From the NCBI GenBank assembly GCA_964016885.1, contig OZ024756.1:3162001-3226000 (forward strand): 64,000 nt of DNA, in the 5' to 3' direction. The notes beneath the pieces were generated by a model that worked only from the letters and a program-made list of their open reading frames with translations, made no database searches and had not been told where the DNA came from. How positions within the stretch are numbered: position 1 is the first letter of the stretch; each line of letters begins with the position of its first letter. The DNA is from Eledone cirrhosa. Its lineage: Eukaryota. The position numbers and the translations under genes are program-made. Of this stretch, positions 488-61,038 are shown one piece after another.

Positions 488-883
488 TATATATTAGATT
501 GTTAAACAATATTCAATGATTATGTCAAAGAATTAGTTTTACAGTAGATTGGAAGCACTCCATTTTCTGGAGTTATTAATATTAAAATATAAGTATTCAT
601 AACATAGATGTTCTTTTGATCAATTACATTTTATTATACATATTTCGGATGTACAACAGTATGTCCTCATCAGACAAAACATAATGATGCATGACATACC
701 CTGAGGTGTTAAATGGTTCAGATTTAATCAAGGTACTATATTCACAAGTGTTTTTAAGCTTCATATCATGTCTCCTTATGTTATCTGATGAGAACGCAGA
801 TATCATCCCATGATGATATATATTAGATTACCTTGATTAAATCTTAACCATTTAACATCTCAGGGTATGTCATGTATCATTAT

Positions 884-936
884 ATTTTGTCTGATGAGGA
901 TGTACTGTTGTACATCCGAAATATGTATAATAAAAT
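884..936 (+). ncRNA. Type I hammerhead motif, family H2 (inverted partner about 628-680 minus)
   Basis: ATTTTGT-CTGATGA-GGATGTAC-tgtt-GTACATCC-GAAA-TATGTA-TA-ATAAAAT, with a perfect 8-bp stem II. Confidence 0.85.
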
Positions 937-974
937 GTAATTGATCAAAAGAACATATATTTTATTAATACTTA

Positions 975-1059
<85 letters not shown>

Positions 1060-1120
1060 GTGTGTGTGTGTGTGTATATATATGTGTGTGTGTGTGTGTA
1101 TATATATATGTGTGTGTGTG

Positions 1121-1185
<65 letters not shown>

Positions 1186-1194
1186 ATGTATATA

Positions 1195-1351
<157 letters not shown>

Positions 1352-1360
1352 ATGTATATA

Positions 1361-1399
<39 letters not shown>

Positions 1400-1820
1400 G
1401 TGTCTGTGTATATATATATGGCTAGAGATAGAGATATAGAGAGATGTATACATGTGTTTATTGTGAATCTGCCTGCGTATAGATATGTCTACTAATGTGT
1501 GTTTGTGAATTTTACTACGTGTATATATATATACGTATATGTATATTTGTTATATGTGAGTATGTATGCCGATATGAGAGTGTGTGTGTGTATGTGTGCG
1601 TATATGTATGTGAGTGTGTGTGTGTGAGTGCACGTGTGTATGTACGAATTCCATTTGTTTTAAGTGTGTGTATTGAAGCGTGTGGCTTGGCGAGATCTGT
1701 TATATCGTAAAAGCTTCCTAGATATCTGAAGACCGCCATGTTAAACTTGCAAACGTACAAGTAATTATACAACCGTAAAGAGACTATATACCACCCGCCA
1801 GGGGAAACCCTGTATATCTA

Positions 1821-1873
<53 letters not shown>

Positions 1874-1900
1874 GTAATATATACATGCATAATATATATC

Positions 1901-1950
<50 letters not shown>

Positions 1951-1971
1951 GTATTGATATGTATATATATA

Positions 1972-2014
<43 letters not shown>

Positions 2015-2056
2015 GTAATATATACATACATAATATATATAATATATATATTTACT

Positions 2057-2107
<51 letters not shown>

Positions 2108-2134
2108 TGATATGTATATATATATATGTGTGTG

Positions 2135-2197
<63 letters not shown>

Positions 2198-2436
2198 CTG
2201 GGCGGTACACACTAGATAACTACGTAGATTTGTCTTGAATTCATTTCGTTTTTCGTTTAACATTTTGTTCTAGTTTTTGCAATTACTTATATGATTTCTT
2301 TTGTAATTATTGTTTGGCTGCGTTTGTTTCTTGTAATATTAGAAATGACGGAGAAAGGCAGACTGGCAGATAGAATGGAAGAAGGGAGATATAAACAGAT
2401 GAATGGGTATATCTATATGTATGTGTGTATATATAT

Positions 2437-3048
2437 ATGGTGGCTGCCAACTCGTTTTCGAGTACGGCCACTACTTTATATCCATGTAGGAGAACCCCTA
2501 CCGAAGCGCTGCATGAGTGTGACTTTTTAGTCCAGCCAGCGACTTGAAAACTCTGGTACAAACACTACACTTGTGACAATTATTGACACATAGTGCTGGG
2601 CCCATGGTACCATGTGAGGACAAGTGCAGAGAGATCTCCAGATATAAAGCAATGCCTGTGCCGTGAAGCTTTTATAGTGAGCAAAGGCACTGCACAAAGC
2701 CAGTCCCACTCTCTTAACCAAGATGATATTTACCAAAAAGAAGAACAAGTCAACATCATTGGATACCATCAAGGTTGCAGGTGTTATATCAGAGTTTTCC
2801 TTCTCCTAGAATTCTGCCTTGACAAAGGCTAAGGGGTCATCTCTCCCGGTGATTTTGGATGGCCATTGACTCTTAAGAGCTCCTTTGCCCTTTGACAGGT
2901 TTTGTTTTTAGTCCTGCAGGATGTCCAAAGTCACCCTCCTCACCAAGAAACCTTGGTGGGGTTGCCAGTTTAGTCGCCAACGACCCGACCATGAGACAGG
3001 TTGTACTGGGATACATGTTACCAGTAGCACCAACTGGTGACCTGACAT
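2437..3048 (-). mobile_element. About 600-bp non-coding repeat resembling an RTE-clade 5' UTR (copies 20615-21206 opposite strand, 41342-41731 partial)
   Basis: Three highly similar copies with shared ends inside (TA)n. Contains CTAGGAGAAGGAAAACTCTGA, a motif I recall from RTE 5' UTRs. Orientation and family are inferred. Confidence 0.6.
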
Positions 3049-3049
3049 C

Positions 3050-3160
<111 letters not shown>

Positions 3161-3168
3161 CACATATT

Positions 3169-3226
<58 letters not shown>

Positions 3227-3238
3227 CACATATTTGTA

Positions 3239-3281
<43 letters not shown>

Positions 3282-3362
3282 ACACACACACAAACACACA
3301 TATATATAGCGAGAACTTAATAAATCTGTACAATTGCCTCCTGCGTTGTGTTCGGTCTTTTC

Positions 3363-3404
<42 letters not shown>

Positions 3405-3937
3405 TTGGAGGCGGTAAAAACCAGTTAGACCATTACTCACCTGAGTACTCGATGCTTGTGGTAGTAGAGTGAGTAATATCAAAAAATTCATGACCCCGAC
3501 GGCTGAGCTCCCGCCGTTTCAACAGCTAGAAGACTAGAAATCATAGTTAATTCGCTTAACTTTTGATAAACAAAACGGTTGACTCAAGAATCATTGAGAA
3601 ACTTTGACATCGGAAATGTGTAATTCTAACACAAACTGCCATAAATAAACGGGTGTGTGGTGTGAAGTGGTGAATATATATATACATACACACAAGGTCT
3701 GAACACAAAGGAACCAAACTCCCACTGTAACTACTTCCGTCTCACTCGCTCTCTCTAGCCCTCACTATCATGAAAAGGTCCCACGCGTTGCCCCCTCCCC
3801 ATCCCCCAACCTCTAGGGACAGCCAGGATAATAGTCACTCACATAAATATTAGTTGAGAAAAATTGGGGAAATTCCCTTGGAGTCGGATATTAATAGATA
3901 TATGGGCCCCTCTCCCCACTTTTTCCTTCCTATGAGT

Positions 3938-4275
3938 TATGAGTGAGGGCTGAAAAGTTCATAGACTGGCTATGAAGGAATGATGCTAGAGATATGAAAT
4001 CTTGTTTGTTTTAATTTCGATCCCACTTATTAATAACGACATTGTTTCTTTGCAGGGACTATGTTGAAAAATAAACCTTATTTGGTCATTCCATGAGAGT
4101 ATCTTGATCTGCCTATGAAGAGGAGATGCTAGAGCTGTGAAATCTTGCATGTATTGATTTCAACTATTCTTTTTAATAACTGCATTGTTTCCTTCCCAGG
4201 ACTATGCTGAGGAAATAAACCTCATTGGGTCATTCCATGAGAGTATCTTGGTCTGCCTATCAACGTTTCAAAACG
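3938..4275. repeat. About 145-bp tandem duplication with imperfect terminal inverted repeats, possible mariner-type MITE
   Basis: CTATGAAG..GATGCTAGAG..GGTCATTCCATGAGAGTATCTTG occurs twice. TGAAAAGTTCATAGAC at the left is roughly complementary to GCCTATCAACGTTTCA at the right. Confidence 0.4.
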
Positions 4276-4541
4276 ACTTTACAAGCTTAACACCATTTTG
4301 ACAACTATTTTTTGTAGTTACATACGTTAGGACGACTACGATGTTAGATTAGAGGCTATTTCCTCCCCCTACTCCTATTCCCCCCACCCCTACTCCCCAT
4401 CTCCCTCCCCCTACTCACCATCTCCCTCCCCCTTCTCCACCCGCCACCTCCTCTTCTTACTCTAAACAATGTGTCTTCGCAATTTTTTGTCAGCTCGCTT
4501 AATTAGAAATCTTACAGAATATGACTTTCACACATAAATAT

Positions 4542-5176: not shown

Positions 5177-5182
<6 letters not shown>

Positions 5183-6870
5183 ATTCTTTGGGAGGGTCAA
5201 GTTGCCAATAAGAAACACACGCACCAGTTGCTTTCACTTCAATTTATTATAATAAATTTATAATAAATTTATAATAAATTTATAAATTTATAAATTTCTG
5301 GTTGGTTGGTTGGTTCCACAACCAGTTAGTTGTTTATATATTGTCATAGTTCTTTTGTCACACACTATGTGACCTCTTCAGTGACTGGGGATTCCTTTCT
5401 TTGTTTCTGTGCCTCTCCTTTGTTCTGTCCTACGCCATTTTGTTTCTGTGTGTGTGTTGTGTGCTCAGTTTGCGCATGCGCCACATCCGGGTGTCTGTGT
5501 GTGTTTATGTTCATTTATTTATTTGTTTATTTACATGTTACTGGTTGGTTGTTTGTTCTATGTGTGTGTGTGTTTTCATATTGTCCTTAGTTGTAAGTTG
5601 TGATGTTGCTGTTCCACTCATATTTTCTATTTAATTTTGGTTGTAATTCTTTTATATTTATTGCCTCTGTAATTTGTCTAAACATTGCGTCTTTTCTGTG
5701 TGTAGATTCTATTTTTATTTCTATGTTCTCTAATTTAACCTTGTGTTCTATTTTAGCATGTTGGTAGAGTACAGATGATTCTTTACTATCTTGAAGGTCT
5801 CGCCAGTGTTCATTTATCCGTTCCCCTACACTACGAGCTGTCTCACCTATGTACACTATATTTTTGTCTCTACATTGTCCTTCAGTACATCTTATGCTAT
5901 ACACTACATTTCTAGTTTTACAGTTAATATGGGGGCTTATTTTACAGGTTATACATTTCTTATCTATACATGAGTGTCTTTGAAAAGGGTATGTCTTGCT
6001 AATAAGTGTTTTTACGGAGGTACCTGGTCTTTCTACTATCTTAATATTGAGTTTATGTTTATTTAGGGCCCTTCTAAATTTGTAAGTTAATTCACCTCTA
6101 GGGGTTGTATCGATGAACATTACACTCTGGTATTTATTGCTATCATACCATGAGTTTATTCTATTAGCCTTGTTCCTAGTTCTTTCTATTCTATTCCAAA
6201 ATTTGCTCCTATACAAGGGGCAGGTCCCATTTATGTCATTATTTACCATTTTTTCCCATTTGGTTTTGGCTCCTCTATACACTCTGATTTTATCTCTCTG
6301 ATTGTAGCCAGAGAACTGCATACGGTGGATGAAGTGTTGTATGTGTCTCTCTAGTTCTTCGGGGTTGCACATGCGGGACACATTTCTCATCACCCGTACC
6401 AAATCCGCAATCAGTATGTTGATTTTGGTATGGTCCGAAACGGCCGAGTTTCGGTGGATCAGATGTTTGGAAGTCATGGGTTTGGCATAATGGGAATGGA
6501 GGATTTGTTTTTTGTTATTAATGGTATCTAACCAGAGCCCTGTGTCTAGTACAGGTAATCGATGGTTGGGGTGTTTACTAGGGTAGTCTATAGTAACTCT
6601 AATGCTCTGGTGGATGGAGTTAGCTATTTGCTGGATGCTTTCCATTGTGTTTTTCTCTAGTTCCTGACTGTTCTCTAGTTGGGTTGTCTTAACTACGATG
6701 TTTATATCATCAACGTAGCGGGAGTACATTATCAGGGTTAAGGAGTCTTCTCATTGTTCTTTAAGCTTATAGGTAGGAGCAGCCATTGGTGTTAGCATTG
6801 CAGGCGACATAGCTAACTTATTCATGGTATGGTGGGACAGTAGACTTAAATTTAAGCTTAAAGAACAATT
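5177..6870 (-). mobile_element. Penelope-like element family A, 5'-truncated copy with a short 5' inversion (about 6773-6870)
   Basis: Near-identical to 9330-10930. Its 3' end runs into (TA)n. The 5' end carries about 100 bp of the adjacent RT region in the opposite orientation. Confidence 0.9.
5587..6729 (-). pseudogene. PLE-A RT C-terminus + GIY-YIG endonuclease fragment
   Basis: YSRYVDD RT motif, CxxxxCxxC linker, and VVYSIRC...YIGET..R..EH GIY-YIG motif. Confidence 0.9.
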
Positions 6871-9270: not shown

Positions 9271-12200
9271 ATTTCGTTTCTGAATTTGTTTAGCAAGATT
9301 CTTTATCTGAAATCGTGTGTTGAAACCGATATTGTTATACTTTGGGAGGGTCATGTTGCCTATAAGAAACACACGCACCAATTGCTTTCACTTCAATTTA
9401 TTATATATTTATAAATTTATAAATTTACAAATCTACAAACCTATAAATTTCTGGTTGGTTGGTTGGTTCCACAACCAGATAGTTGTTTATATATAGTCAT
9501 AGTCCTTTCGTCACACACTCTGTGACCTCTTCAGTGACTGGGGATTCCTTTCTTCGTTTCTGTGCCTTTCCTTTCTTCTGTCCTACGCCATTTTGTTTCT
9601 GTGTGTGTGTTGTGTGCTCAGTTTGCGCATGCGCCACATCCGGGTGTCTGTGTGTGTTTGTGTTCATTTATCTATTTGTTTATTTATTTACATGTTGTTG
9701 GTTGGTTGTTTGTTCTATGTGTGTGTGTGTTTTCATTTTGTCCTTAATTGTAAGTTGTGATGTTGCTGTTCCACTCATATTTTCTATTTAATTTTGGTTG
9801 TAATTCTTTTATGCTTACTGCCTCTGTAATTTGCCTAAACATTGCATCTTTTCTGTGTGTGGATTCTATTTTTATTTCTATGTTCTCTAATTTACCCTTG
9901 TGTTCTATCTTAGCATGTTGGTAGAGTACAGATGATTCTTTATTATCTTGAAGGTCTCGCCAGTGTTCATTTATCCGTTCCCCTATACTACGAGCTGTCT
10001 CACCTATGTACACTATATTTTTGTTTCTACATTGTCCTTCAGTACATCTTATGCTATACACTACATTTCTAGTTTTACAGTTAATATGGGGGTTTATTTT
10101 AGAGGTTATACATTTCTTATCTATACATGAGGGTCTTTGCAACGGGTATGTCTTGCTAATAAGTGTTTTTATGGAGGTACCTGGTCTTTCTACTATCTTA
10201 ATATTGAGTTTATGTTTATTTAAGGCCCTTCTAAATTTGTAGGCTAGGTCGCCTCTAGGGGTTGTATTGATGAACATTACACTCTGGTATTTATTGCTAT
10301 CATACCATGAGTTTATTCTATTGGCCTTGTTCCTAGTTCTTTCTATTCTATTCCAAAATTTGCTCCTATACAAGGGGCAGGTCCCATTTATGTCATTATT
10401 TCCCATTTTTTCCCATTTGGTTCTGGCTCCTCTATACACTCTGATTCTATCTCTCTGATTGTAGCCAGAGAACTGCATACGGTGGATGAAGTGTTGTATG
10501 TGTCTCTCTAGTTCTTCGGGGTTGCACATGCGGGACACATTTCTCATCACCCGTACCAAATCCGCAATCAGTATGTTGATTTTGGTATGGTCCGAAATTG
10601 CCGAGTTTCGGTGGATCAGATGTTTGGAAGTCATGGGTTTGGCATAATGGGAATGGAGGATTTGTTTTTGGTTGTTAATGGTATCTAACCAGAGCTCTGT
10701 GTCTAGTACAGGTAATCGATGGTTGGGGTGTCTACTTGGGTAGTCTATAGTAACTCTAATGCTCTGGTGGATGGAGTTTGCTATTTGCTGGATGCTTTCC
10801 ATTGTGTGTTTTTCTCTAGTTCCTGACTGTTCTCTAGTGGGGGTGTCTTAACTACGATGTTTATATCATCTACGTAGCGGGAGTACATTATCAGGGTTAA
10901 GCTGTCTTCTAATTGTTCTTTAAGTTTAAGTTTAAGTCTACTGTCCCACCATACCATGAATAAGTTAGCTATGTCGCCTGCAATGCTAACGCCAATGTCT
11001 GCTCCTTCCTCTTGGGCATATGTTTTACCATTAAATTTGAACATATGTTCCTTAAGGGTTAATTTTATGCTGGCCCCTACCGCATGTGCAATCATTTTCT
11101 TCAGTTTATCGTGGTTTTCGGGTGTCCGTATGGCTCTGGTCCACCCGTTCCATCTAACTGTGTGGATTTTCTTGGCCATTGAGGTAATGGTAGGTGGTCT
11201 GCCTCTTGCTGGTCTTGTAGGGCACAGGTTGCTAAGGTCATAAGTGTCTAGGTAACTATTACTATGGGTAAGCTTAAGTAGAAGTCCCAGCTCACTGGTA
11301 TCAATCCCACGGAACTCAACCTTGCTCTCGCTGACCATTTCTACGCATTTCTCCACAGCAAAATCCACGTCAATAGATGGATACAGGGACACAACATCCA
11401 TACTGCCTTTTATGCAGTTTGTTAGGTCCCCAGATAGGTTACTCACGCCGATTCTGCTGAGGAGGTCCTCCGTGCTGTCACATACATCTGGGGACATCTC
11501 AATGATGGGGCGTATGATCAGGGAGAGGAAGTAGGACAGTCTGTAGTTACTAGCAATGTTAGCTCCACAGACTGGCCGTGTTGGTGGTCCCGCGACAGGG
11601 TCACAGCCCGTTTTATGGTCTTTTCGAAGCCCATACAACGCCGGCACGTCATTGTTCCAGGCCTGGAAGTTGTTGGCAGTCCTTTTGTTGGGCTGCATTT
11701 TATTCGTCCACATCACCATATGGGCATTGAGGGCTTTTTCTCTATCCTCATGCTCCTGTGGTGTTACCTCTCTTGTGTTAGTGATGTGGGGTTGCATTGC
11801 CTGGATGTAGTTTGGCAGGCTGTCAACCGACATTCTGCCGGACTTGTCTGTTGAAAAGCATGCTATCTCTCCATTACGTGAGCGCTGCATGAGCTTACGC
11901 AAGCCATTTGCAGATTTTTCTCTCAGTTGCTGGGCCTCTATTCTATTATGCTTCTTGCTATACTGTTCTATAATATTTCTAAGTTCGGATTTAGCTATAC
12001 TAAATTGTGCTTCTGTTTGTTCATCGACCTGCGACGGCAACTGCGTGCGTTTGTTAAATGGTAAAGTCGTGGCGTGGACTCGTCGCAGGTCGAATGATTT
12101 ATCGGAGGGATTATAAAACGGAGAGTTCCAGGCTGCTGCTTTATGTGTACTAGTGCTATTGTTATTGTTAGTTGTGTTGTTTCTATTTCTATTTCCACCA

Positions 12201-14488
12201 ACAGCCTCATGGTTGTTTCTATGTCTCTCATAATTCCTCCTGTCTCTTTCCACTGGCTCAATGTTGTTATCTACCCTATTTTGTGTGTCTGTGTGTTCGT
12301 CTTGGTTATTCTCTTTGTCCTTAGTCTCCCATCTCCTTTTCCTTTTAATCTTATTACTTTCCCTTATTTCTCTGATTTCTATGCTACTGTCATTACTTGT
12401 TTTCTGTGTCTGTGTGTTTGTTAAGATTGTGGTGGTGGTGAGAGGCATTGAATGCGTGTGTGTTGTTGTTGATGTGTGCTGTTGTTGATGTGTGTTGTTG
12501 TTGTCTCCGTGTGTGTTATCGTTGTTGTGTGTGTTGTTATTGTTGTTTGTGTCTGCGTGTCTGCGTGTCTGTTGTTGTTGTTTGTGGGTATGTTGCTATT
12601 GTTGTTGTTGTTGATGTGTGTGTTGTTGTTATTGTTGTTTGTGTCTGTGTGTCTGTTGTTGTTGGGATGTGTGTTGTATATGTGTGTGCGTATATTGTTG
12701 CTTTTGTTTTTGATGCTCCAGCGTAGTTTTGTAAATGATTTTTCTATTTCTGACAGACAACTAATCATATTTACCTTCTTGAATGTCGCAAATTTCGGCG
12801 GCAAATGTAACACAGACATTTCATCCTTATCTATTTTTGTGTTCCCATAAATGTTGGTGTTTTTGTTGTTGAACTCTTCTGATAATGAGGTGTCGGCCAT
12901 GTTGATACCGTCAATTTTGTTGGGATATCTATTGGTATACTCTATAGTATCCTGATTTAGCTTTGCGTATTTAAGCCACTTTAGTTTCCTGTTAAAGTGC
13001 TTATCACATTCTTGAGTAATGTACTGTTCTTCGGGGCGTATAAGGCTTATAAATATTAGTTTCTCTGTTGGTGTGGTGATTCTAGCTATTTCTTGTATTA
13101 GGTTACGCTTTTGTTTTTCTTGATGACTTAATTCTCTATAGATCTTCTTTTTTATGTTTAGAATTAAAGTTCGTTTTAGCCTATCTGCTTCTAACGTCGG
13201 TATTGATGGTGTTGGTGTAGATTCTAGAAGAGGCACAGAGCTTTATGAAGGATAGTTGTCGAGATGTTATGGTTTTTCGTAGACAACAGAACATGGTGGT
13301 TTTGAGTATCTTGTTAGCCTGGCTAAGGCTTACGATATTTCGTTTCTGAATTTGTTTAGCAAGATTCTTTATCTGAAATCGTGTGTTGAAACCGATATTG
13401 TTATACTTTGGGGGGGTCATGTTGCCAATAAGAAACACACGCACCAGTTGCTTTCACTTCAATTTATTATATATTTATAAATTTATAAATTTATAAATCT
13501 ACAACCCTATAAATTTCTGGTTGGTTGGTTGGTTTCACAACCAGATAGTTGTTTATATATAGTCATAGTCCTTTCGTCACACACTCTGTGACCTCTTCAG
13601 TGACTGGGGATTCCTTTCTTCGTTTCTGTGCTTTTCCTTTCTTCTGTCCTACGCCATTTTGTTTCTGTGTGTGTGTTGTGTGCTCAGTTTGCGCATGCGC
13701 CACATCCGGGTGTCTGTGTGTGTTTGTGTTCATTTATCTATTTGTTTATTTATTTACATGTTGTTGGTTGGTTGTTTGTTCTATGTGTGTGTGTGTTTTC
13801 ATTTTGTCCTTAATTGTAAGTTGTGATGTTGCTGTTCCACTCATATTTTCTATTTAATTTTGGTTGTAATTCTTTTATGCTTACTGCCTCTGTAATTTGC
13901 CTAAACATTGCATCTTTTCTGTGTGTGGATTCTATTTTTATTTCTGTTCTTTAATTTACCCTTGTGTTCTATCTTAGCATGTTGGTAGAGTACAGATGAT
14001 TCTTTATTATCTTGAAGGTCTCGCCAGTGTTCATTTATCCGTTCCCCTATACTACGAGCTGTCTCACCTATGTACACTATATTTTTGTTTCTACATTGTC
14101 CTTCAGTACATCTTATGCTATACACTACATTTCTAGTTTTACAGTTAATATGGGGGCTTATTTTACAGGTTATACATTTCTTATCTGTACATGAGGGTCT
14201 TTGGAACGGGTATGTCTTGCTAATAAGTGTTTTTATGGAGGTACCTGGTCTTTCTACTATCTTAATATTGAGTTTATGTTTATTTAGGGCCCTTCTAAAT
14301 TTGTAGGCTAGTTCGCCTCTAGGGGTTGTATTGATGAACATTACACTCTGGTATTTATTGCTATCATACCATGAGTTTATTCTATTGGCCTTGTTCCTAG
14401 TTCTTTCTATTCTATTCCAAAATTTGCTCCTATACAAGGGGCAGGTCCCATTTATGTCATTATTTCCCATTTTTTCCCATTTGGTTCT
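9271..14488 (-). mobile_element. Penelope-like element family A, full-length unit preceded by a partial tandem copy (pLTR-ORF-pLTR)
   Basis: 13337-14488 duplicates 9271-10425 as a direct repeat around an RT-GIY-YIG ORF. An HHR sits in each repeat. The 3' end abuts (TA)n. Confidence 0.93.
9744..13420 (-). pseudogene. PLE-A polyprotein (N-terminal region, Asn/Thr-rich insert, RT, GIY-YIG), broken by about 3 frameshifts
   Basis: Consecutive overlapping ORFs 13181-13444, 12421-13236, 10781-12448 and 9744-10802. Motifs: TDKSG, LYGLRKDHK, RPV, MDVVSLYPSI, RYVDD, YIGET. Likely start is MTPPK at 13420. Confidence 0.88.
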
Positions 14489-14680
14489 TATGAGAGACAT
14501 AGAAACAACCATGAGGCTGTTGGTGGAAATAGAAATAGAAACAACACAACTAACAATAACAATAGCACTAGTACACATAAAGCAGTAGCCTGGAACTCTC
14601 CGTTTTATAATCCCTCCGATAAATCAAACGACCTGCGACGAGTCCACGCCACGACTTTACCATTTAACAAACGCACGCAG

Positions 14681-16973
14681 TTGCCGTCGCAGGTCGATGA
14701 ACAAACAGAAGCACAATTTAGTATAGCTAAATCCGAACTTAGAAATATTATAGAACAGTATAGCAAGAAGCATAATAGAATAGAGGCCCAGCAACTGAGA
14801 GAAAAATCTGCAAATGGCTTGCGTAAGCTCATGCAGCGCTCACGTAATGGAGAGATAGCATGCTTTCCAACAGACAAATCCGGCAGAATGTCGGTTGACA
14901 GCCTGCCAAACTACATCCAGGCAATGCAACCCCACATCACTCACACAAGAGAGGTAACACCACAGGAGCATGAGGATAGAGAAAAAGCCCTCAATGCCCA
15001 TATGGTGATGTGGACGAATATAATGCAGCCCAACAAAAGGACTGCCAACAACTTCCAGGCCTGGAACAATGACGTGCCGGCGTTGTATGGGCTTCGAAAA
15101 GACCATAAAACGGGCTGTGACCCTGTCGCGGGACCACCAACACGGCCAGTCTGTGGAGCTAACATTGCTAGTAACTACAGACTGTCCTACTTCCTCTCCC
15201 TGATCATACGCCCCATCATTGAGATGTCCCCAGATGTATGTGACAGCACGGAGGACCTCCTCAGCAGAATCGGCGTGAGTAACCTATCTGGGGACCTAAC
15301 AAACTGCATAAAAGGCAGTATGGATGTTGTGTCCCTGTATCCATCTATTGACGTGGATTTTGCTGTGGAGAAATGCGTAGAAATGGTCAGCGAGAGCAAG
15401 GTTGAGTTCCGTGGGATTGATACCAGTGAGCTGGGACTTCTACTTAAGCTTACCCATAGTAATAGTTACCTAGACACTTATGACCTTAGCAACCTGTGCC
15501 CTACAAGACCAGCAAGAGGCAGACCACCTACCATTACCTCAATGGCCAAGAAAATCCACACAGTTAGATGGAACGGGTGGACCAGAGCCATACGGACACC
15601 CGAAAACCACGATAAACTGAAGAAAATGATTGCACATGCGGTAGGGGCCAGCATAAAATTAACCCTTAAGGAACATATGTTCAAATTTAATGGTAAAACA
15701 TATGCCCAAGAGGAAGGAGCAGCCATTGGCGTTAGCATTGCAGGCGACATAGCTAACTTATTCATGGTATGGTGGGACAGTAGACTTAAACTTAAACTTA
15801 AAGAACAATTAGAAGACAGCTTAACCCTGATAATGTACTCCCGCTACGTAGATGATATAAACATCGTAGTTAAGACACCCCCACTAGAGAACAGTCAGGA
15901 ACTAGAGAAAAACACAATGGAAAGCATCCAGCAAATAGCAAACTCCATCCACCAGAGCATTAGAGTTACTATAGACTACCCAAGTAGACACCCAACCATC
16001 GATTACCTGTACTAGACACAGAGCTCTGGTTAGATACCATTAACAACCAAAAACAAATCCTCCATTCCCATTATGCCAAACCCATGACTTCCAAACATCT
16101 GATCCACCGAAACTCGGCAATTTCGGACCATACCAAAATCAACATACTGATTGCGGATTTGGTACGGGTGATGAGAAATGTGTCCCGCATGTGCAACCCC
16201 GAAGAACTAGAGAGACACATACAACACTTCATCCACCGTATGCAGTTCTCTGGCTACAATCAGAGAGATAGAATCAGAGTGTATAGAGGAGCCAGAACCA
16301 AATGGGAAAAAATGGGAAATAATGACATAAATGGGACTGCCCCTTGTATAGGAGCAAATTTTGGAATAGAATAGAAAGAACTAGGAACAAGGCCAATAGA
16401 ATAAACTCATGGTATGATAGCAATAAATACCAGAGTGTAATGTTCATCAATACAACCCCTAGAGGCGAACTAGCCTACAAATTTAGAAGGGCCCTAAATA
16501 AACATAAAGTCAATATTAAGATAGTAGAAAGACCAGGTACCTCCATAAAAACACTTATTAGCAAGACATACCCGTTCCAAAGACCCTCATGTATAGATAA
16601 GAAATGTATAACCTGTAAAATAAGCCCCCATATTAACTGTAAAACTAGAAATGTAGTGTATAGCATAAGATGTACTGAAGGACAATGAAGAAACAAAAAT
16701 ATAGTGTACATAGGTGAGACAGCTCGTAGTATAGGGGAACGGATAAATGAACACTGGCGAGACCCTTCAAGATAATAAAGAATCATCTGTACTCTACCAA
16801 CATGCTAAGATAGAACACAAGGGTAAATTAGAGAACATAGAAATAAAAATAGAATCCACACACAGAAAAGATGCAAGTTTAGGCAAATTACAGAGGCAGT
16901 AAGCATAAAAGAATTACAACCAAAATTAAATAGAAAATATGAGTGGAACAGCAACATCACAACTTACAATTAA
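14681..16973 (+). pseudogene. PLE-A RT + GIY-YIG with frameshifts and one in-frame stop
   Basis: ORFs 14681-16015, 16084-16374 and 16344-16688 are nearly identical in protein to the minus-strand copy. Confidence 0.88.
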
Positions 16974-17175
16974 GGGACAAAATGAAAACACACACACACA
17001 TAGAACAAACAACCAACCAACAACATGTAAATACATAAACAAATAGATAAATGAACACAAACACACACAGACACCCGGATGTGGCGCATGCGCAAACTGA
17101 GCACACAACACACACAGAAACAAAATGGCGTAAAACAGAAGAAAGGAAAGCACAGAAACGAAGAAAGGAATCCCC

Positions 17176-17220
17176 AGTCACTGAAGAGGTCACAGAGTGT
17201 GTGACGAAAGGACTATGACT
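17176..17220 (+). ncRNA. PLE-A pLTR hammerhead (also minus 9495-9539, 13561-13605, 19910-19954, mutated 5342-5386; plus 20063-20107)
   Basis: AGTCA-CTGAAGA-gGTCAC-agagtgt-GTGAC-GAAA-GGAC-TA-TGACT. Minimal HHRs in pLTRs are an established PLE feature. Confidence 0.85.
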
Positions 17221-17413
17221 ATATATAAACAACTATCTGGTTGTGGAACCAACCAACCAACCAGAAATTTATAGGTTTGTAGATTTATAAATTTATAAAT
17301 TTATAAATATATAATAAATTGAAGTGAAACAACTGTGTGCGTGTGTTTCTTATTGGCAACATGACCCTCCCAAAGTATAACAATATATATATATATATAT
17401 ACTTATATATATG

Positions 17414-18036: not shown

Positions 18037-18236
18037 CCAAGTATGACCCCGACGGCAGAGCTCAAGCCCTTTCGACGGCTAATTCTGGACTAAACAGTCC
18101 AGAATTAACCGTCGAAACGGCTTGAACTCTGTCGTCGGGGTCATACTTGTTCTATCACCCACTCTACTACCCTAAGTATTGAGTACTTTGGTGCGTTATG
18201 GTCCACCTGGTTCCTTACCACATTTTTTTCGTTATA
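18037..18236. mobile_element. Fold-back element family H15 (also 23699-23910, 62671-62856; single arm 3400-3530; fragments 21231-21283, about 63790-63880)
   Basis: GACCCCGACGGC..GCCGTCGGGGTC palindrome plus a tail with TAAGTATTGAGTACT. Contains only the 3' half of an HHR (GAAA-CGGC..GCCG-TC-GGGG). Confidence 0.8.
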
Positions 18237-18427
18237 TATATATGTGTGTTTAATCGTTGGTAACCAGTTAGTAACGTACTCAATACTTACCAGAGTATAA
18301 ATATTTAATATAGAAATGGCTTCTACAGGACGAGAACTGATTCATTCCGGAGTAATCATCAAGAAGCCACTGATGATTTCTCCCGAATGAAACAGTTCTA
18401 GTCCTGTAGAAGCCATTTCTATATTAA

Positions 18428-18473
<46 letters not shown>

Positions 18474-18540: not shown

Positions 18541-19697
18541 AACATACATACATGTATATTTGTGTGTGTGTGTGTTTGCACACAGGAACCGGCGAGTGTG
18601 TCTGTATAGTTTGTGTGTATATGTATGTAGAAGTATAAAACATATGTATTAAATCATTTAGCATATAAATACGAAACAATTTAGCGAATTACTGGGGCAT
18701 AGATGAATACGTCGAGAGAAATTAAAAGATATTAGCTCTTTGAAGCTGATCTGACACAATCAGCCACACACCTCCCACACAGCCCGTTCCATTTGAATAT
18801 AGCATATAACTGTGTAAGGAGGAAGTTTACTATTATTCATATATATATAAGTATGTATACGTACATACATATATGTATACAGACGTACAGTAGTATGTAT
18901 ATATATACATACATGCACACATATATATATATACGTATGGATTTACCGAGTATTTATTATAATGCTCGGTTTGTTTGTAAACAAACATCCCGTATTAAGC
19001 CGTACAGTGTTTAGCAACCATCGTTGCCCTTTTGTTCAACACTGACAAAGGAACGATGTACTAGTTTCAAGCTTATTAGCTATCGTCTGCACTGTATACC
19101 TTCCTGCCAGATGATTGAACGTCTGAAAGTATATATTTTCCTTATGTATATTAACGGCTGAGCAGCCTAATTTGCATATCGAATGAGTTAATCGGCCGAG
19201 ATTAACAGATTGAAGTTTAAGCAAAGAATCTGTGCTTTCACCCTTAACGGTATCTTCTTAAATTAAGAAAATCAATCTGTGAACGCAGAAGTAAATATTT
19301 CGATAGACGTTGCAACCGAAAGAAAACAGGAAGACCATACTTTGGTATGACTCCATGTATGACATTAACGTGGTTTATCTTTGCCTATATTTGTTCTCAT
19401 CGGTCCACATAACGACGTATTATCTTCGCTTTTTCCGCTCATTGCCAGGGAACGTCTTCACGAACCAAAGTATCGTCTTCCTGTGTTCCTCCGGTTGCAA
19501 GGTTTTTCGAAATATTTACTTCTGCGTTCACAGATTAATTTTATTTAGTCTCAGAAGATCCCGTTAAGGGTGAAAGCAGCGATTATTTGCTTAAACTTTA
19601 ATCTGTTATTTTAATAAATATTTGCTCTAGGGTTCTTATATATATTATACTTATCGAGCCCTCTTTGGGTTTTAGTCGTCAAATTTAGTATTATTAC

Positions 19698-19750
<53 letters not shown>

Positions 19751-19756
<6 letters not shown>

Positions 19757-20328
19757 ATACTTTGGGAGGGTCATGTTGCCAATAAGAAACACACGCACCA
19801 GTTGCTTTCACTTCAATTTAATTTAATATATATTTATAAATTTACAAATTTATAAATTTCTGGTTGGTTGGTTGGTTCCACAACCAGATAGTTGTTTATA
19901 TATATATATAGTCATAGTTCTTTCGTCACACACTCTGTGACCTCTTCAGTGACTGGGGATTTCTTTCTTCGTTTCTGTGCCTTTCCTTTCTTCTATCCTA
20001 CGCCATTTAAATGGCGTAGGATAGAAGAAAGGAAAGGCACAGAAACGAAGAAAGAAATCCCAAGTCACTGAAGAGGTCACAGAGTGTGTGACGAAAGAAC
20101 TATGACTATATATATATATAAACAACTATCTGGTTGTGGAACCAACCAACCAACCAGAAATTTATAAATTTGTAAATTTATAAATATATATTAAATTAAA
20201 TTGAAGTGAAAGCAACTGGTGCGTGTGTTTCTTATTGGCAACATGACCCTCCCAAAGTATAACAATATCGGTTTCAACACACGATTTCAGATAAAGAATC
20301 TTGCTAAACAAATTCAGAAACGAAATAT
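19751..20328. mobile_element. Non-coding fold-back derivative of the PLE-A pLTR
   Basis: Near-perfect palindrome centred at CGCCATTTAAATGGCG (about 20008), arms about 258 bp, flanked by (TA)n on both sides. Confidence 0.9.
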
Positions 20329-20425
20329 ATATATATATATATATATATAATATGAGATAAAAAGATGGTTAACCATCTTTTGAACTTATATTGTTTTATT
20401 GTTGCTACAATAAAACTCACCTCCT

Positions 20426-21859: not shown

Positions 21860-22091
21860 TCGTGTGTCATATATATATATATGTATATATATATATTTAG
21901 GTTTGTTGGTTCACCAACGGATAGAACTGGTCATTCCGTATGGTCAATCTTGATGTAATATTTTGGAGAGTACTCAACGTGGTACAGTTCACCCGTCTTC
22001 GTTTGTGTAGTTGGTGGTGCTAATACGGAGTTAATTATTACAAATAAAATAACAGGAGGTTGGACTGGTGTAAATCCTTGAAAAGTTTATT

Positions 22092-22149
22092 ATACTATAA
22101 TCATTTCAATGACCGGGTTCCGTATGAATCCGGTGATATCATCAGGTAT
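22092..22149 (-). ncRNA. Type I hammerhead motif, family H9 (mutated inverted partner 22273-22330)
   Basis: ATAC-CTGATGA-..ACCGG..CCGGT..-GAAA-TGATTA-TA-GTAT. Confidence 0.75.
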
Positions 22150-22381
22150 TCGAAATATAACAAAGGAATATATAAAAGGAATATATAAAATCCATGGGTC
22201 CGAAAATCAGAGACAGGGAGGACGACTGACCAACTAGCTGCTTTCACCTCGGTCAGTCCCCTTAAGTTTCGAATACCTGATGTTATCACCGGATTCATAC
22301 GGAACCCGGTCATTAAAATGATCATAGTATAATAAACTTTTCAAGGATTTACACCAGTCCAACCTCCTGTAATTTTATTTG

Positions 22382-22438
<57 letters not shown>

Positions 22439-22674: not shown

Positions 22675-23241
22675 CAGTATATATAATTGTTTCTACTTTT
22701 GGCACAAGGCCAGCAAATACCCAGTACATTACTGGTACTTTATTTTATCGACCCCCTAAGGATGAAAGGCAAAGTTAACCCCTCTCCGGGATTTGAACAC
22801 AGATCGTAAAGGGACGTAACTATGCTGGAAAGCCTGGCGTCCAACCCTCTACCAATACTGTCAATTCACACATAATATCTATATATTTCATATATATATA
22901 TATATAACATATGTGTGTGTCTTTATCTCCCGTAATACTTTTTCTCTCTCCCTCTCTACCAATATATCACCCTCTCTCTATCACACCGCTACTGTTTCTC
23001 TCAGTTTCCCGTTCCTACATCCAATATCTCTTCTACTGGCATCAGCATTTACAATTCTCTTTCTGTTTAACAACTTGATGGTATGAATCTCTCATTAAAT
23101 AATCTACTGACGACCTACATGTGTGAGGAGAGTGTCAGTGTGGGGACTTCTTTCTACGTGTGTCGGTACTTCTCTTACTTCAATAGAGCTCTATATGTGT
23201 ATTTATATATATATATCTATATATATATCTATATCTATATA

Positions 23242-25542: not shown

Positions 25543-25654
<112 letters not shown>

Positions 25655-25785
25655 GTGAGGTTTTTTTTACAAAATGAGAAATAACCGATGTGTCCTACAC
25701 GAGTGGATGTATAAAGAAAAAGAGATGAAATCGAAAATGCAACTGAAGTCTTATTTTTTTTTAAAATATATATATTTATTTGGTT

Positions 25786-25823
25786 CCTTTACCGGTTTCG
25801 CAGTTCTTCTGCTTTTCAAAAGG
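25786..25823 (-). ncRNA. Hammerhead motif with U3-A8 core, family H10 (also about 34464-34501 plus, 43082-43119 minus)
   Basis: CCTT-TTGAAAA-GCAG-aagaa-CTGC-GAAA-CCGG-TA-AAGG. Confidence 0.7.
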
Positions 25824-25970
25824 TGAGTTGAGATGGAGGGTCTGTGGTTTTTCTCACATCTCAGATGAAAAGCAGAAGAACTGCGAAATCGGTAAAGGAA
25901 CCAAATAAATATATATATTTTTTAAAAAAATAAGACTTCAGTTGCATTTTCGATTTCATCTCTTTTTCTT

Positions 25971-26002
<32 letters not shown>

Positions 26003-27554: not shown

Positions 27555-28177
27555 GTATATATATATACACACATATATATATAAGTATATATATATATAT
27601 ATGTATATATATATACATATATATATATATACGATATATTAACAAATCGAAACTATATTTATAAAACCATATTTATTTCATTATATATATTTCAAGGACA
27701 CCAAGTTAAATTGTGGTGTGCTTTCATCAGATAAAATATAATATAGATCAGTTTTATAAATAAATATTGACATACTCTTAAAGAATGCGACCATTTCTGT
27801 TGAAACCTCCCGGATAGTATACATATATATATATATGTATATTATATACATATATATATATATGTATGTATATATATATATATATGTATATTATATACAT
27901 ATATATATATATGTATATTATATACATATATATATATTTATATGTATATGTATATATATATGTATATGTATATGTATATGTATATATATGTATATGTATA
28001 TATAGATATATAGATAGATAAATATACAAGGGTGTGTATGATTGTGTATAGAAGATTATATTAATAAAAGGAATTCCAACTTTGTCTGATTTACTCGTTT
28101 TATTTACAATCCTTTAAAATTTATAATGGTATTATAATGAAAATAGTATGATAGAATATTAAATGTTAAGTGTTAAT

Positions 28178-28216
28178 TGAACAAGTACTTTCATGCTTTC
28201 GCAATCTTCAGGTTCA
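28178..28216 (-). ncRNA. PLE-B pLTR hammerhead
   Basis: TGAAC-CTGAAGA-tTGCgaaaGCAt-GAAA-GTAC-TT-GTTCA. Confidence 0.8.
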
Positions 28217-28589
28217 TTATGTGTGGTGACAGTCAAGTTTGCAATTTTCAACTGTAATGAGATGGGTAACTTTTGTACCTTATATACAGTGAAAAGTGGC
28301 TCCAGAATGCTAAATCTCGCAAACTGTATTTCGACCAATCGGTGTGTAGTTTTACTGAATTACTAAAGCTGATTGGTTTAGGCGTCACGGTTGGTTGAGC
28401 ATGTCTAATGACCACTAATTGATCCTATCCAAAGCATCAATTGTTTTGCTATTTTTAGATATGATGAAAATAGCATTTTCTAGTAATCATCACTATCAAC
28501 ATCACTTTTATTATTATTATTATTGTTGTTGTTGTTGTTAGTGGTCGTAGTCGACATGGTCGTAGTCATAGTTATTATTATTATTATTG

Positions 28590-29818
28590 TTCATTTAGCT
28601 TGGGTTTGAATTTATCAATAAAATTCTTTGATTTTTCTCTTGATTTCACTTGGTCCGGGTAATTTGTAGAATGGGAATATTATAAATATTCCCTGACCAC
28701 ATGTTGCTAGATGGTTACTTAGGGGTATCTGACGGACATTTGGGTCTCTGATTTGCTGTCGGTGTACCCGTGCACGTTCCGGTAGTGCATTTCCAGTTTG
28801 ACCGACATATAGTTTTTCACAATTCGGGCATTTAATGCAGTAAATTAGATTTCTGATTTTGCAGTTCATATTTGCATTTGGAAATATTTTTCCAGTTTTT
28901 GTTTTCATATATTGAAAACAATGGATTGACATGTGCCGCATCGACTATCATTGCATTTAGATACAGTGAATGATTGGTCTTTGTTGTTAAGGTCAAACTT
29001 TGCTTTTGTTAGCAATTGCTTCAAATTTTTCGGCTGTCTTTTACTAAGAGTCAAAGATCGATCTGTGATTAAGCCTTTTTATTCATTACTTTGAGCAATG
29101 ATCGGTAGGTTTGCTTTGGCAATGTTGAAGATATTCTGGTGACATTGGTTGTGTGTCATTATAAATGGTATGACCAGTTCTTGGTTTCTTATTCCTTGGG
29201 TTGTCCTAAGTTGTTGTATAGGTATTTTTATAGCCCGCTGTATGCCATTTTCTATAAGTAGAGATGGGTATTTTTGTTTGAGTAAAAAATCTCTTAGTTC
29301 TGTTAGGCATTTGTACCTGGTATTCGTATCTTCTACAATGGTACAAATTCTTCTGGCTAGACAGTATGGGATGTTGCGTTTTGTATGAGGTGAATGGCAC
29401 GACTTAAAATTCAGATATTGATGGGTGCCTGTGTGTTTATAATATATATCCGTGGTAATGGTGGTGTCGTATTTGATTATCATTATATCTAGGAATGGTA
29501 ATTTTGTCCTACTCATCTCTTTTGTGAATTGGAGAGATGGGTGTAGGTTATTTCAGGAGGATATTGAACTCATCCAGAGTATCTAGAGATTCTGTCCAGA
29601 TGATGAAACAGTCGTCAAGGTATCTCTTCCAAGATTGTTCAATGTACTTTCTAAAATCAGTACTATATTTTTCCTCTATTTCTTGGTAGAGTTGTTGTTC
29701 TAAGTATCCCATTAAAGAGTTCGCGTAAACGGCAGCAAGCTTCGTTCCCATCGCTGTGCCTCCTATTTGGATGTAATTATTTCCATTGAAGAAGAAAATG
29801 TTGTTTTCCAGAATAAGT
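28590..29818 (-). pseudogene. PLE-B RT/thumb/GIY-YIG remnant
   Basis: ORFs 29548-29751, 29079-29516 and 28615-28941 are collinear and separated by stops or frameshifts. Confidence 0.85.
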
Positions 29819-29853
29819 TTAACTGCGTCTAATATAAATGTATAATATATATG

Positions 29854-29986
<133 letters not shown>

Positions 29987-30053
29987 TTCCAAAAGAAATG
30001 GTCGCATTCTTTAAGGTTATGTCAATATTTATTTATAAAACTGATCTATATTA

Positions 30054-30117
30054 TATTTTATCTGATGAAAGCACACCACAATTTAACTTGGTGTCCTTGA
30101 AATATTATAATGAAATA
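30054..30117 (+). ncRNA. Type I hammerhead motif, family H6 (also about 27674-27738 minus, about 54642-54703 minus, 54841-54902 plus)
   Basis: TATTTTAT-CTGATGA-AAGcACACCA..TGGTGTcCTT-GAAA-TATTA-TA-ATGAAATA. Confidence 0.8.
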
Positions 30118-30237
30118 AATATGGTTTTATAAATATAGTTTCCATTTGTTAATATATCGTACTTTTACTCCAATAATTTGTTGAGTGCTTTATATCAGTT
30201 ATAAAAATATTTACTTGTACAATTTAAATAGAACTTC

Positions 30238-30440: not shown

Positions 30441-30512
<72 letters not shown>

Positions 30513-30776
30513 ATGTATATATAATGTATTTTGCAATACACCTTATGCTTAATTAAAAGCATTTTGAAGACCGTATGCTATTGTTTTAGAGTAGTGACAA
30601 ATTCACTTACTTTAATCTCAGCAAACATCCATATATATATTGTTATTTCAGAGCTTCAATTCTAAATTTTAATTGCTGCCTGACCAACAATCGCTCTGTA
30701 TAATCAGCTCCTGATTATTTACTAGAATTCTATAAGAATATAACATCAGTAATCTCAGTAGACAGGAGGGGTAGTT

Positions 30777-30822
30777 AGCCTTGATAAGCTTCAACAAAAG
30801 CGAAACAAGGCCCTTGTCGGCT
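30777..30822 (+). ncRNA. Hammerhead motif with U3-A8 core and GUC site, H11
   Basis: AGCC-TTGATAA-GCTTcaacaaAAGC-GAAA-CAAGgccCTTG-TC-GGCT. Stem I extends further (CAGGAGGGGTAG../..CTTATCTCCCCTG). Confidence 0.75.
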
Positions 30823-31387
30823 TATCTCCCCTGTTTGCTGATATTAAAGTGAGTGAATTTGTCACTACTCTAAAACAATAGCATACGGTCTTCAAAATGC
30901 TTTTAATTAATCATAAAGTGTATTGCAAAATACATTATATATACATCCATATATATATTGCTATTTCAGAGCTCCAATTCTAACTTTTAATTTCTGCCTG
31001 ACCAACAATCGCTCTGTATAATCAGCTCCTGATTATTTACTAGAATTCTATAAGAATATAACATCAGTAATCTCAGTAGACAGGAGGGGTAGTTGTAAAA
31101 TTAAACTTATTAATTCTTCATAGAGCTTAAAAGTGAACAGTTGCAACATATATATATTTTTAACTTTATGTATATGATAACCTTTATATTTAATAACCTC
31201 CCAATAGGTTGAGATTAAATTTGGCGATATTTGGCTGCGCTTTCTAGCAGCAAGCATACCCGCCGTAAGCAACCAACCACATTCTTTCTCTCTGGCTTGA
31301 ACAAAGCCACATAGCGATATTTGGCCATTTTTGAATCTAATTTTGGCGGGATCGGATTGAAAAACTAGATGTCTGATTTTGAGTTTG

Positions 31388-38603: not shown

Positions 38604-38675
<72 letters not shown>

Positions 38676-39108
38676 TAAAATAACTGTTTCTACTTTAGGC
38701 ACAAGGCCAGCAATTACCCAGTGCATTACTGGTACTTTATTTTATCGACCCCGTAAGGATGAAAGGCAAAGTCAACCTCGGCGGGATTTATTTATTAAAA
38801 TAACAGATTAAAGTTTAAGCAAAGAATCGCTGCGTTCACCCTTAACGGGATCTTCTGAAACTAACAAAGTCAATCTGTAAACGCAGAACTGGATATTTCA
38901 AAAAACGTTGCAACCGGAGGAAGACAGTAAGACGATACTTTGGTTCGTGGAAACGTTCCCTGGCAAAGAACGGGAAAAAAAGAATATAATACGTCATTAA
39001 TAGGAGCGGAGAAAAACAATTACACGCAAAGACAGAACCACGTTTATGGTATAAAAGAAGTCGTAGACTAATGTTCCCTTAGGTGGTTCATAGAGACGTT
39101 CTTATTAT

Positions 39109-42622: not shown

Positions 42623-42904
42623 TATGTATGTGTGTGTTTGTGTGTGTGTGTATACCTATATACACATACCTCTCTCTCTCTCTATATATATATATATAAC
42701 CAAAGATAAATATGGTTCGTTGATTAATCAACGATTACAGTTTTATAATAGATTAAATACTCCAAGAAAATCCATTGCCGAGTGCTTCTAATCTATTGTA
42801 AAATTGTATTCGTTGAATAATCAACGAACCATATACAATTTTGGTCATACTTAGCTACCCGAAGGTAGAGTTCTTCTTCTACAATAGATTCTATTAATAT
42901 TTTG

Positions 42905-43257: not shown

Positions 43258-43310
43258 GAGATTCTACAGGCCTAGAACTGTTTCATTCTTTAGAAATCAT
43301 CAGGAATCTC
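43258..43310 (-). ncRNA. Type I hammerhead motif, family H3 (also 18318-18368 minus, 18370-18414 plus, 53881-53933 plus; decayed about 6885-6925 and 54115-54210)
   Basis: GAGATTC-CTGATGA-tTTCtaaaGAAt-GAAA-CAGttctaggcCTG-TA-GAATCTC. Confidence 0.82.
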
Positions 43311-43390
43311 GTTGCATTGTATTTTCTACGCCATCTTTATTTAAAATAAAGATGGCGTAGAAAATACAATGCAACGGGGGGAAACAATAG

Positions 43391-45475: not shown

Positions 45476-46760
45476 TACACACATATGCACACACACACAT
45501 GCACACACCCGCATGCACACGTACACACACACGTACACACATACACACACATACACACACATGCACACACCCGCCTGCACACGTATATATACGCACTGAA
45601 ACGTACACACACACGTACACACATACACACACATGCACACACCCGAATGCACACGTATATATACGCACTGAAACGTACACACACACGTACACACATACAC
45701 ACACATGCACACACATGCATGCACACGTATACATACGCACTGAAACGTACACACGCACGTACACACATACACACACATGCACACACACGCATGCACACGT
45801 ATACATGCGCACAGAAACGTACACACGCACGTACACACATACACACACATACACACACATGCACACACCCGCATGCACACGTATCTATACGCACTGAAAC
45901 GTACACACGCACGTACACACATACACACACATACACACACATGCACACACCCGCATGCACACGTATCTATACGCACTGAAACGTACACACACACGTACAC
46001 ACATACACACATACACACACATGCACACATCCGCCTGCACACGTATATATACGCACTGAAACGTACACACACACGTACATACATACACACACATACACAC
46101 ACATGCACACACCCGCATGCACAAGTATATATACGCACTGAAACGTACACACACACGTACATACATACACACACATACACACACATGCACACACCCGCAT
46201 GCACACGTATATATACGCACTGAAACGTACACACACACGTACAGACATACACACACATACACACACATGCACACACCCGCATGCACACGTATATATACGC
46301 ACTGAAACGTACACACGCACGTACACACATACACACACATGCACACACACGCATGCACACGTATACATGCGCACAGAAACGTACACTCACACATGCGCAC
46401 AGACACGTACACTCACACATGCGCACAAATACGGACACTCACAGATGCGCACAGAAACGTACACTCACACATGCGCACAAATACCGACACTCACACATGC
46501 GCACAGAAACGTACACTCACACATGCGCACAGAATTGTACACTCACACATGCGCACAGACACGTACACTCACACATGCGCACAGAAACGTACACTCACAC
46601 ATGCGCACAAATACCGACACTCACACATGCGCACAGAAACGTACACTCACACATGCGCACAGAATTGTACACTCACACATGCGCACAGACACGTACACTC
46701 ACACATGCGCACAGATACGTACACTCACACATGCGCACAGATAGGTACACTCACACTGCG
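45476..46760. repeat. CA-derived compound minisatellite: 72-82-bp unit, then 26-bp unit
   Basis: GCACTGAAACGTACAC recurs every 72-82 bp up to about 46370, then GTACACTCACACATGCGCACAG recurs every 26 bp. Confidence 0.9.
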
Positions 46761-46947
46761 CACGCGCACACACACTCATACATCGAATCTTCAGCAGTTG
46801 TGGATTTCATGTTGTTGTTTACGGGGTCGATAAAATAAAGTACCAGTAATACACTGGTGTCAATTTAATCGACTTTTACCTCATACGAAAATTGTTGGCC
46901 TTGCTCTTAAATCAAAAACCATTATTATTATTGTTATTTTTATTATA

Positions 46948-54535: not shown

Positions 54536-54597
<62 letters not shown>

Positions 54598-54599
54598 CA

Positions 54600-60991: not shown

Positions 60992-61038
60992 AAATATATA
61001 TATATTAAATAATACATATATATATTAAATAACAGAAG

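Follow-up and report, generated by a model that had tools for sequence, protein, structure and literature searches.

Self-comparison of the window, a 64,000-nucleotide stretch of contig OZ024756.1 from the 3.0-Gb, (TA)n-rich genome of Eledone cirrhosa, was run with microsatellites masked (an unmasked inverted-repeat search was swamped by (TA)n) and revealed a self-inverted match of 514 nt at positions 19752-20265. In the unmasked sequence, this match contains a single mismatched pair (19955/20062) and no spacer, with its center between 20008 and 20009. The right arm extends to 20324, the hairpin measures ∼570 bases overall, and both ends grade into (TA)n. The short, tail-less arm (S arm; 19752-20008, minus strand) covers the pseudo-LTR (pLTR) of an element family, here family A, from its 5′ edge to the first of two start sites. 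The long arm (L arm), on the plus strand, consists of the pLTR portion delimited by self-comparison (20009-20265) and a one-sided tail of ∼60 nt (20266-20324) present in the right arm only. In tandem copies of the element, the tail sequence is the start of the 5′ leader, just after the pLTR (13339-13398, minus strand). The arms meet at a spacer-free inner junction (20003-20014), where both end at the pLTR 5′ edge. The sequence at 20325-20349 provides the right (TA)n flank. The left one (19702-19751) is also the TA run ending a neighboring family-F element (19400-19700), and the focal element is thus nested in the latter. The family-A pLTR palindrome proposed in an earlier, sequence-only reading of the window is therefore real. 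The pLTR 5′ edge at the focal junction (20003-20020) bears a putative YY1-like motif; 18 of 120 family-A inner ends cluster there, and the palindrome of a second family (43310-43376) is centered on the same motif, which may mark transcription start.

The focal arms align at 85 to 88% identity with pLTR sequence of the element found at 5179-6769 and 9273-17382 and are, by sequence, the pLTR of an EN+ GIY-YIG Penelope-like element (PLE), the coding copies of which lie within 5.2-17.4 kb of the window. The long family-A insertion is built like the focal stub: a tailed arm (9273-14488, minus strand) holding a full but frameshifted reverse transcriptase (RT) plus GIY-YIG unit and a partial tandem copy is joined head-to-head at 14488 to a tail-less arm (14488-17382, plus strand). 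Copies of the pLTR with its tail at 13339-13659 and 9273-9593 flank the open reading frame (ORF) in a partial tandem arrangement. A further copy (5179-6769, minus strand) encodes the thumb, a CX4CxxC linker, and the GIY-YIG/CCHH endonuclease. The element has a single ORF, frameshifted in the window copies, with an RT bearing a YVDD motif. Pfam matched RVT_1 weakly to this ORF (E value of 9e-4, below cut-off) and returned no match to GIY-YIG. Motifs of the C-terminal GIY-YIG endonuclease with CCHH were read in the translation, and Atlas neighbors of the protein carry RVT_1 and DUF8422, with GIY-YIG in 13 to 21% of members. Sequence searches of the PDB recovered one distant RT and no match for the endonuclease, and a homodimer prediction on the N-terminal 174 residues scored 0.00. 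The CX4CxxC linker upstream of GIY-YIG (5587-6750, minus strand) falls within the CX2-5CxxC pattern that defines Neptune/Nematis-type PLEs in PMC8557442.

The only evident host gene in the window is an intronless forkhead ORF of 687 aa (57137-59200, minus strand), presumably of the FoxC type according to its motifs. Tandem arrays occur at 45500-46763, 50557-52101, and 61039-61932 (units of roughly 60 to 70, 40, and 60 nt, respectively), and a dispersed short SINE-like repeat was found in both orientations (22679-22876, 38673-38789, 46818-47393, 50176-50370, and 60101-62112).

Hammerhead motifs of the pLTR arms

Each focal arm carries a minimal type I hammerhead motif, at 19910-19954 on the minus strand (core at 19949) and at 20063-20107 on the plus strand (core at 20068), exactly the spans given in the sequence-only reading. 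The motif combines the CUGAnGA and GAAA core with helices I and II, a short helix III, and a UH cut site; stem I has 5 bp, one extra G precedes the 5-bp stem II, and stem III has 2 bp. An Rfam search with E values up to 1 yielded hairpin and microsatellite noise, with no hammerhead family among the 150 of 400 matches listed, and the call thus rests on the motif and on published anatomy. The PLE minimal type I hammerhead described in PMC4209133 likewise combines a short helix I with an unpaired base ahead of stem II and a palindromic-like helix III of 1 to 2 bp. Helix II differs, with 5 bp in the focal motif, known here from its sequence, versus 7 to 8 bp in the Schistosoma consensus. According to the same paper, published minimal motifs cleave weakly and need a tandem partner, and dual minimal hammerheads occur with the two motifs on opposite strands, separated by 100 to 700 bp.

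A ribozyme on both strands had been regarded as a special feature of the palindrome. It was already reported in 2014 (PMC4209133) and is a passive result of inverting the pLTR; the hammerheads are passengers of the pLTR, and their double-strand placement is a by-product. Folding predictions gave stem pairing probabilities of ∼0 in a transcript across the palindrome, compared with 0.99 for stem II and 0.73 to 0.84 for stem I in one arm alone. The ribozyme is thus predicted to be locked inside the hairpin in a read-through transcript and not to fold. A search of sequencing runs listed no RNA data set containing the focal sequence, a result that says nothing about expression either way. Hammerhead cleavage was also considered as the source of the inner ends of family-A arms and rejected, given that only 3 of 120 lay within 5 nt of the predicted cut site.

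Inverted pairs in the window and across the genome

The same head-to-head layout had been claimed at seven other sites of the window, and all seven are inverted pairs, which belong to other PLE-type families. Two canonical cores on opposite strands, called by pattern as an intact CUGAnGA...GAAA, occur in three of them: the family-C pair (500-978; inverted match at 586-978, 84% identity; cores at 673 on the minus strand and 891 on the plus strand; left-arm tail), the family-B pair (49321-49740; match at 49321-49655, 97%; cores at 49424 on the minus strand and 49552 on the plus strand; right-arm tail), and the family-I pair (54593-55030; match at 54593-54951, 94%; cores at 54695 on the minus strand and 54849 on the plus strand; right-arm tail). 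The expected ribozyme on both strands did not hold for the other four. A core is found on one strand only in the family-E pair (18259-18430; match at 18302-18430, 89%; core at 18370 on the plus strand; left-arm tail) and in the family-G pair (21890-22386; 22039-22155 matching 22267-22383, 97%; core at 22145 on the minus strand, the plus-strand copy being mutated; left-arm tail). No canonical core was found in the family-F pair, a Hydra-type PLE (19203-19700; 19203-19346 matching 19464-19608, 88%; right-arm tail), or in the family-H pair (25650-25974; match at 25714-25970, 87%; left-arm tail). A one-sided tail marks all seven sites. Ends were said to dissolve commonly into (TA)n; the left end at 19203 does not lie in (TA)n.

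The description of these families as unrelated was not borne out, since all families with a traced ORF are GIY-YIG PLEs. Families F, J, and D are tied to GIY-YIG PLE ORFs in several copies, and family I is so tied in one window copy, its coding relative at 27633-30225. In the loci analyzed, no ORF could be tied to families B, C, E, or G, and family H had one doubtful link; apparent ORF links through a single query (X282) were judged spurious. By its motifs, family F resembles the Hydra clade PLEs of PMC8557442 in a CxCX5C linker, DKT and RW motifs, the absence of CCHH, and insertion into (TA)n, but it shows no canonical hammerhead core by pattern. The proteins of families D and J are similar. 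A family-H arm of ∼1.1 kb in another locus (L091:1251-2487) has an internal repeat and no ORF, and this family may be non-autonomous; one family-H pattern has 10,373 exact copies in the genome.

Insertion of elements into the TA runs of other families has built up palindrome clusters (18038-18430, 19203-20349, and the flanks of family-A elements). The center of the family-C palindrome (739-819) holds an 81-nt piece of family D, from either a switch between templates of two families or filler at the join. A palindrome related to family B (42710-42834) has tail sequence on both sides and is an exception to the one-tail rule. Two further inverted pairs (30510-30949 and 52662-52871) carry no family assignment, the first overlapping a direct repeat (30625-30776/30943-31094).

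Genome-wide, exact family-A patterns identify 11,813 short ends followed by TA, along with 10,819 ends that either carry the tail or continue. The samples drawn from them are biased toward young copies with exact 32- to 45-nt matches, mostly on one contig. Over the first 43.9 Mb of contig C1, 100 short and 90 tailed ends formed 48 neighboring pairs within 6 kb, which were head-to-head in 42 cases, tail-to-tail in 3, and tandem in 3. The head-to-head pairs comprised 37 mixed (one tailed and one short end), 3 tailed-tailed, and 2 short-short pairs. Random placement would yield ∼1.2 head-to-head pairs, 0.6 of them mixed, and inverted pairs thus exceed chance, a check that had been called for. Reading inward from 94 short ends, taken from the first 100, we found a joined inverted arm in 71 (64 tailed, 2 short, and 5 other); several of the 23 ends without a partner lay where the analyzed flank ended or where the partner was too short to align. 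Of 280 head-to-head pairs within 3 kb across ten families (359 loci plus the window), 212 were mixed, 3 were short-short, and 5 were tailed-tailed; the other 60 were unclear, mostly a tailed arm with a short-position end lacking TA after it or an end at the locus edge. Pairs therefore almost always combine one tailed and one tail-less arm (212 versus 8 like-with-like). The same loci held 35 tail-to-tail and 44 tandem pairs.

Much of this architecture has been published. A head-to-head, inverted 5′-truncated copy is typical of PLE insertions (Craig et al. 2021, PMC8557442; PMC3846280), and both papers describe EN+ insertion units like those found here: the inverted 5′-truncated copy adjoins the 5′ end, only one end bears a tail, and partial tandems, (TA)n targets, and junction microhomology occur as well. 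Opposite-strand hammerheads are likewise on record, and what is new is the counted one-tail rule, the tail being described as "often" present or "optional" in those papers. The family-A tail of ∼60 nt and the tails of the other families, at 60 to over 100 nt, also exceed the published 30 to 40 nt, and two-armed copies are the majority (71 of 94 short ends). The structure is thus ordinary for PLEs, and PMC8557442 names the origin of the inverted copy and the one-sided tail as the next task.

Origin of the two arms

Both arms of a pair belong to one PLE family. Two fixed positions, ∼60 nt apart, account for the outer ends, and a pair nearly always uses each of them once; the inner ends vary, and (TA)n flanks the whole. 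This configuration identifies the focal feature as a 5′-truncated two-armed PLE insertion that was probably produced by twin target priming from two fixed start sites, with the inner ends joined. The element endonuclease would cleave a (TA)n tract on its two strands, and the ends thus released would serve as primers for reverse transcription, each at one of the two start sites on the element RNA. The resulting cDNAs would become linked through their inner ends, the center presumably being sealed by host end-joining at short microhomology. Both arms would be RNA templated, made in a single event, and copied from the same source RNA or locus. In the focal copy, synthesis of the two cDNAs probably ended by run-off at the RNA 5′ end, located at the pLTR edge; this would explain its near-perfect palindrome. 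Twin priming had been suggested from the window itself. Priming from both strands at (TA)n with an inner join is the part of that proposal that fits best, but the arms start at two internal sites and not, as it had supposed, at a single 3′ end. From the genome, we infer that each insertion takes one arm from each start site; the support is correlative and consists of genomic counts. We found no twin-priming model for PLEs in the openly available main texts that were searched.

The geometry of 60 mixed family-A pairs (4 of 64 were dropped as two apparent duplicates and two doubtful chains) bears directly on this proposal. Inner ends span reference positions 545 to 4416, indicating that each palindrome was made anew; the test of whether centers vary within a family, proposed in the sequence-only reading, thus came out in favor of independent formation, with variation over ∼4 kb. 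The tailed arm starts more than 12 nt 3′ of the inner end of the short arm in 34 pairs, the remaining 26 being nested, and in 13 it consists of the tail only and has nothing in common with the short arm. Either arm may be the longer (30 versus 30), and arm lengths correlate (rho of 0.52). Junction overlaps of 1 to 6 nt, judged from BLAST edges, were found in 29 of the 60 pairs. Some insertions are very short (L047, L049, L119, L130, L131, and L135), with a short arm of ∼30 to 36 nt and a tail of 9 to 22 nt, which suggests an early stall of both cDNAs. Target-site duplications are unreadable in (TA)n: one was common to 6 of 7 insertions interrupted on both sides, compared with 0.6 in shuffles, but this indicates only that both flanks belong to one array.

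The main competing explanation is self-priming on an antisense template, proposed for head-to-head PLE palindromes by Arkhipova et al. 2013 (PMC3846280). In this route, the antisense RNA or first cDNA copies itself by folding back, one end is cut back to the short site by the endonuclease, and subsequent one-sided deletions in the center leave the arms unequal. We consider this route unlikely and favor the amended twin priming over it. Fold-back accounts for one tail per insertion and for high arm identity. Within-pair identity has a median of 98.6%, versus 95.1% for a typical other copy, but the best non-partner copy reaches a median of 98.7% and the partner is at least as good in 19 of 38 cases; gene conversion could also homogenize the arms. 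The fold-back route is further consistent with the correlated arm lengths and with an excess of near-perfect centers, 13 of 60 pairs agreeing within 12 nt versus 3.1 expected. These centers, together with the 26 nested pairs, are among the observations that speak against twin priming, in that fold-back would produce them as well. Many near-perfect centers, however, sit at the pLTR 5′ edge, as in the focal copy, or in an AT-rich patch that is self-complementary, and at such places two cDNAs would be expected to meet too. Fold-back predicts a short arm contained in the tailed one, and it cannot generate the 34 non-nested pairs or the 13 tail-only arms without overlap unless deletion followed. 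Such deletion is an unlikely rescue given the even balance of longer arms and the fact that asymmetric pairs make up 11 of the 15 that are at least 99% identical (37 pairs scored), so that asymmetry is no sign of age.

Two sequential events, in which the tail of a first copy serves as the endonuclease target and a second, inverted copy is inserted beside it, or in which later cleavage resolves the structure, seem improbable. The need for the tail in recognition by the Drosophila virilis endonuclease (PMC11167929) and the nesting of families in each other's TA runs lend this scenario some plausibility. Yet no (TA)n separates the arms where their truncated inner ends meet, partners have subfamily variants in common, and head-to-head pairs strongly predominate (280 versus 35 tail-to-tail and 44 tandem).

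Very little probability attaches to a hairpin that is itself mobile, in the manner of a MITE or retrozyme, and has a functional ribozyme on either strand. High copy numbers and the few centers recurring at the pLTR edge (reference 4082-4111, where the inner ends of 9 short and 9 tailed arms fall, out of 60 each) would be expected of such an entity, which is largely refuted by centers that vary over ∼4 kb. MITEs and fold-back DNA transposons have a fixed length and center and matching TIRs, whereas centers here vary and termini are unequal. Non-LTR retrozymes, as defined in bioRxiv 10.64898/2026.07.22.740005, are head-to-tail tandem units with a hammerhead each, in contrast to the two focal motifs on opposite strands. 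The predicted loss of ribozyme stem pairing in the hairpin (∼0 versus 0.99 and about 0.8 in one arm), the scarcity of inner ends near the predicted cut site (3 of 120), and the lack of a hammerhead core in two of the listed families also argue against it. Least probable of all are fold-back chimeras from library preparation or assembly, since arms end at two family-specific positions and differ by point changes (89 to 100% identity), the structures recur in apparently duplicated loci (L017/L024 and L133/L137), and the same layout has been published for other animals.

Start sites, tail signals, and known priming systems

The closest experimental parallel to twin priming at two sites is the anole Poseidon protein, which in vitro cleaves and extends both target strands and starts at two internal sites bounding the tail (Frangieh et al. 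2024, PMC11167929). The families described here share the two internal start sites bounding the tail, although strand cutting and extension were seen in vitro for Poseidon and are suggested by genomic patterns in our case. They belong to another clade and have, at their start sites, a short AT motif with the potential to pair with a (TA)n primer. Hammerhead cleavage was dispensable in the Poseidon assay, and start sites did not differ between strands, so the one-of-each rule was not reproduced in vitro.

Over ten thousand young copies per family in this genome make the rival models countable, and the counts favor one arm from each start site, a reading that provides a sharp prediction for the existing in vitro system. 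In L1 twin priming, both target strands reportedly prime cDNA and the joined products yield an inversion, the second primer being said to act at a variable upstream internal site and to leave pieces without overlap. In the pairs analyzed here, both arms start at fixed sites near one end and overlap into a palindrome.

A more specific proposal, which we put forward tentatively, is that obligately asymmetric twin priming is the default integration mode of EN+ PLEs: two protomers would engage one RNA at two repeated cis-signals bounding the tail, each extending one strand of the double-strand cut. If true, a single reaction would account for one-sided tails, inverted pLTRs, and coupled arm lengths in two or more PLE clades. 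The cis-signals would be the same 7-mer at both sites in family A and, apparently, a small RCTC...GAGY hairpin 3′ of each site in families F and G. Both family-A start sites indeed read AATATCG, although sequence running on through the tailed site was seen in only two contexts. The RCTC...GAGY motif lies within a few bases of the short start site, downstream of it, and is able to pair; in the tail alignment it is common to families B, C, D, E, F, G, I, and J, whereas the tails of A and H lack it. Of 13 tail segments, only 3 had a folding energy with z < -2, so energy does not establish a conserved stable structure, and the motif comes from the alignment. In family F, a compensatory swap replaces an A-U pair with G-C, and a similar motif also follows the tailed start site in two F and three G read-through copies (L089, L310, L311, and L315). 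RCTC...GAGY is therefore a lead, a candidate for a repeated protein-binding signal. Finally, the many thousands of near-perfect hairpins in this one genome could, if transcribed, give rise to double-stranded RNA.
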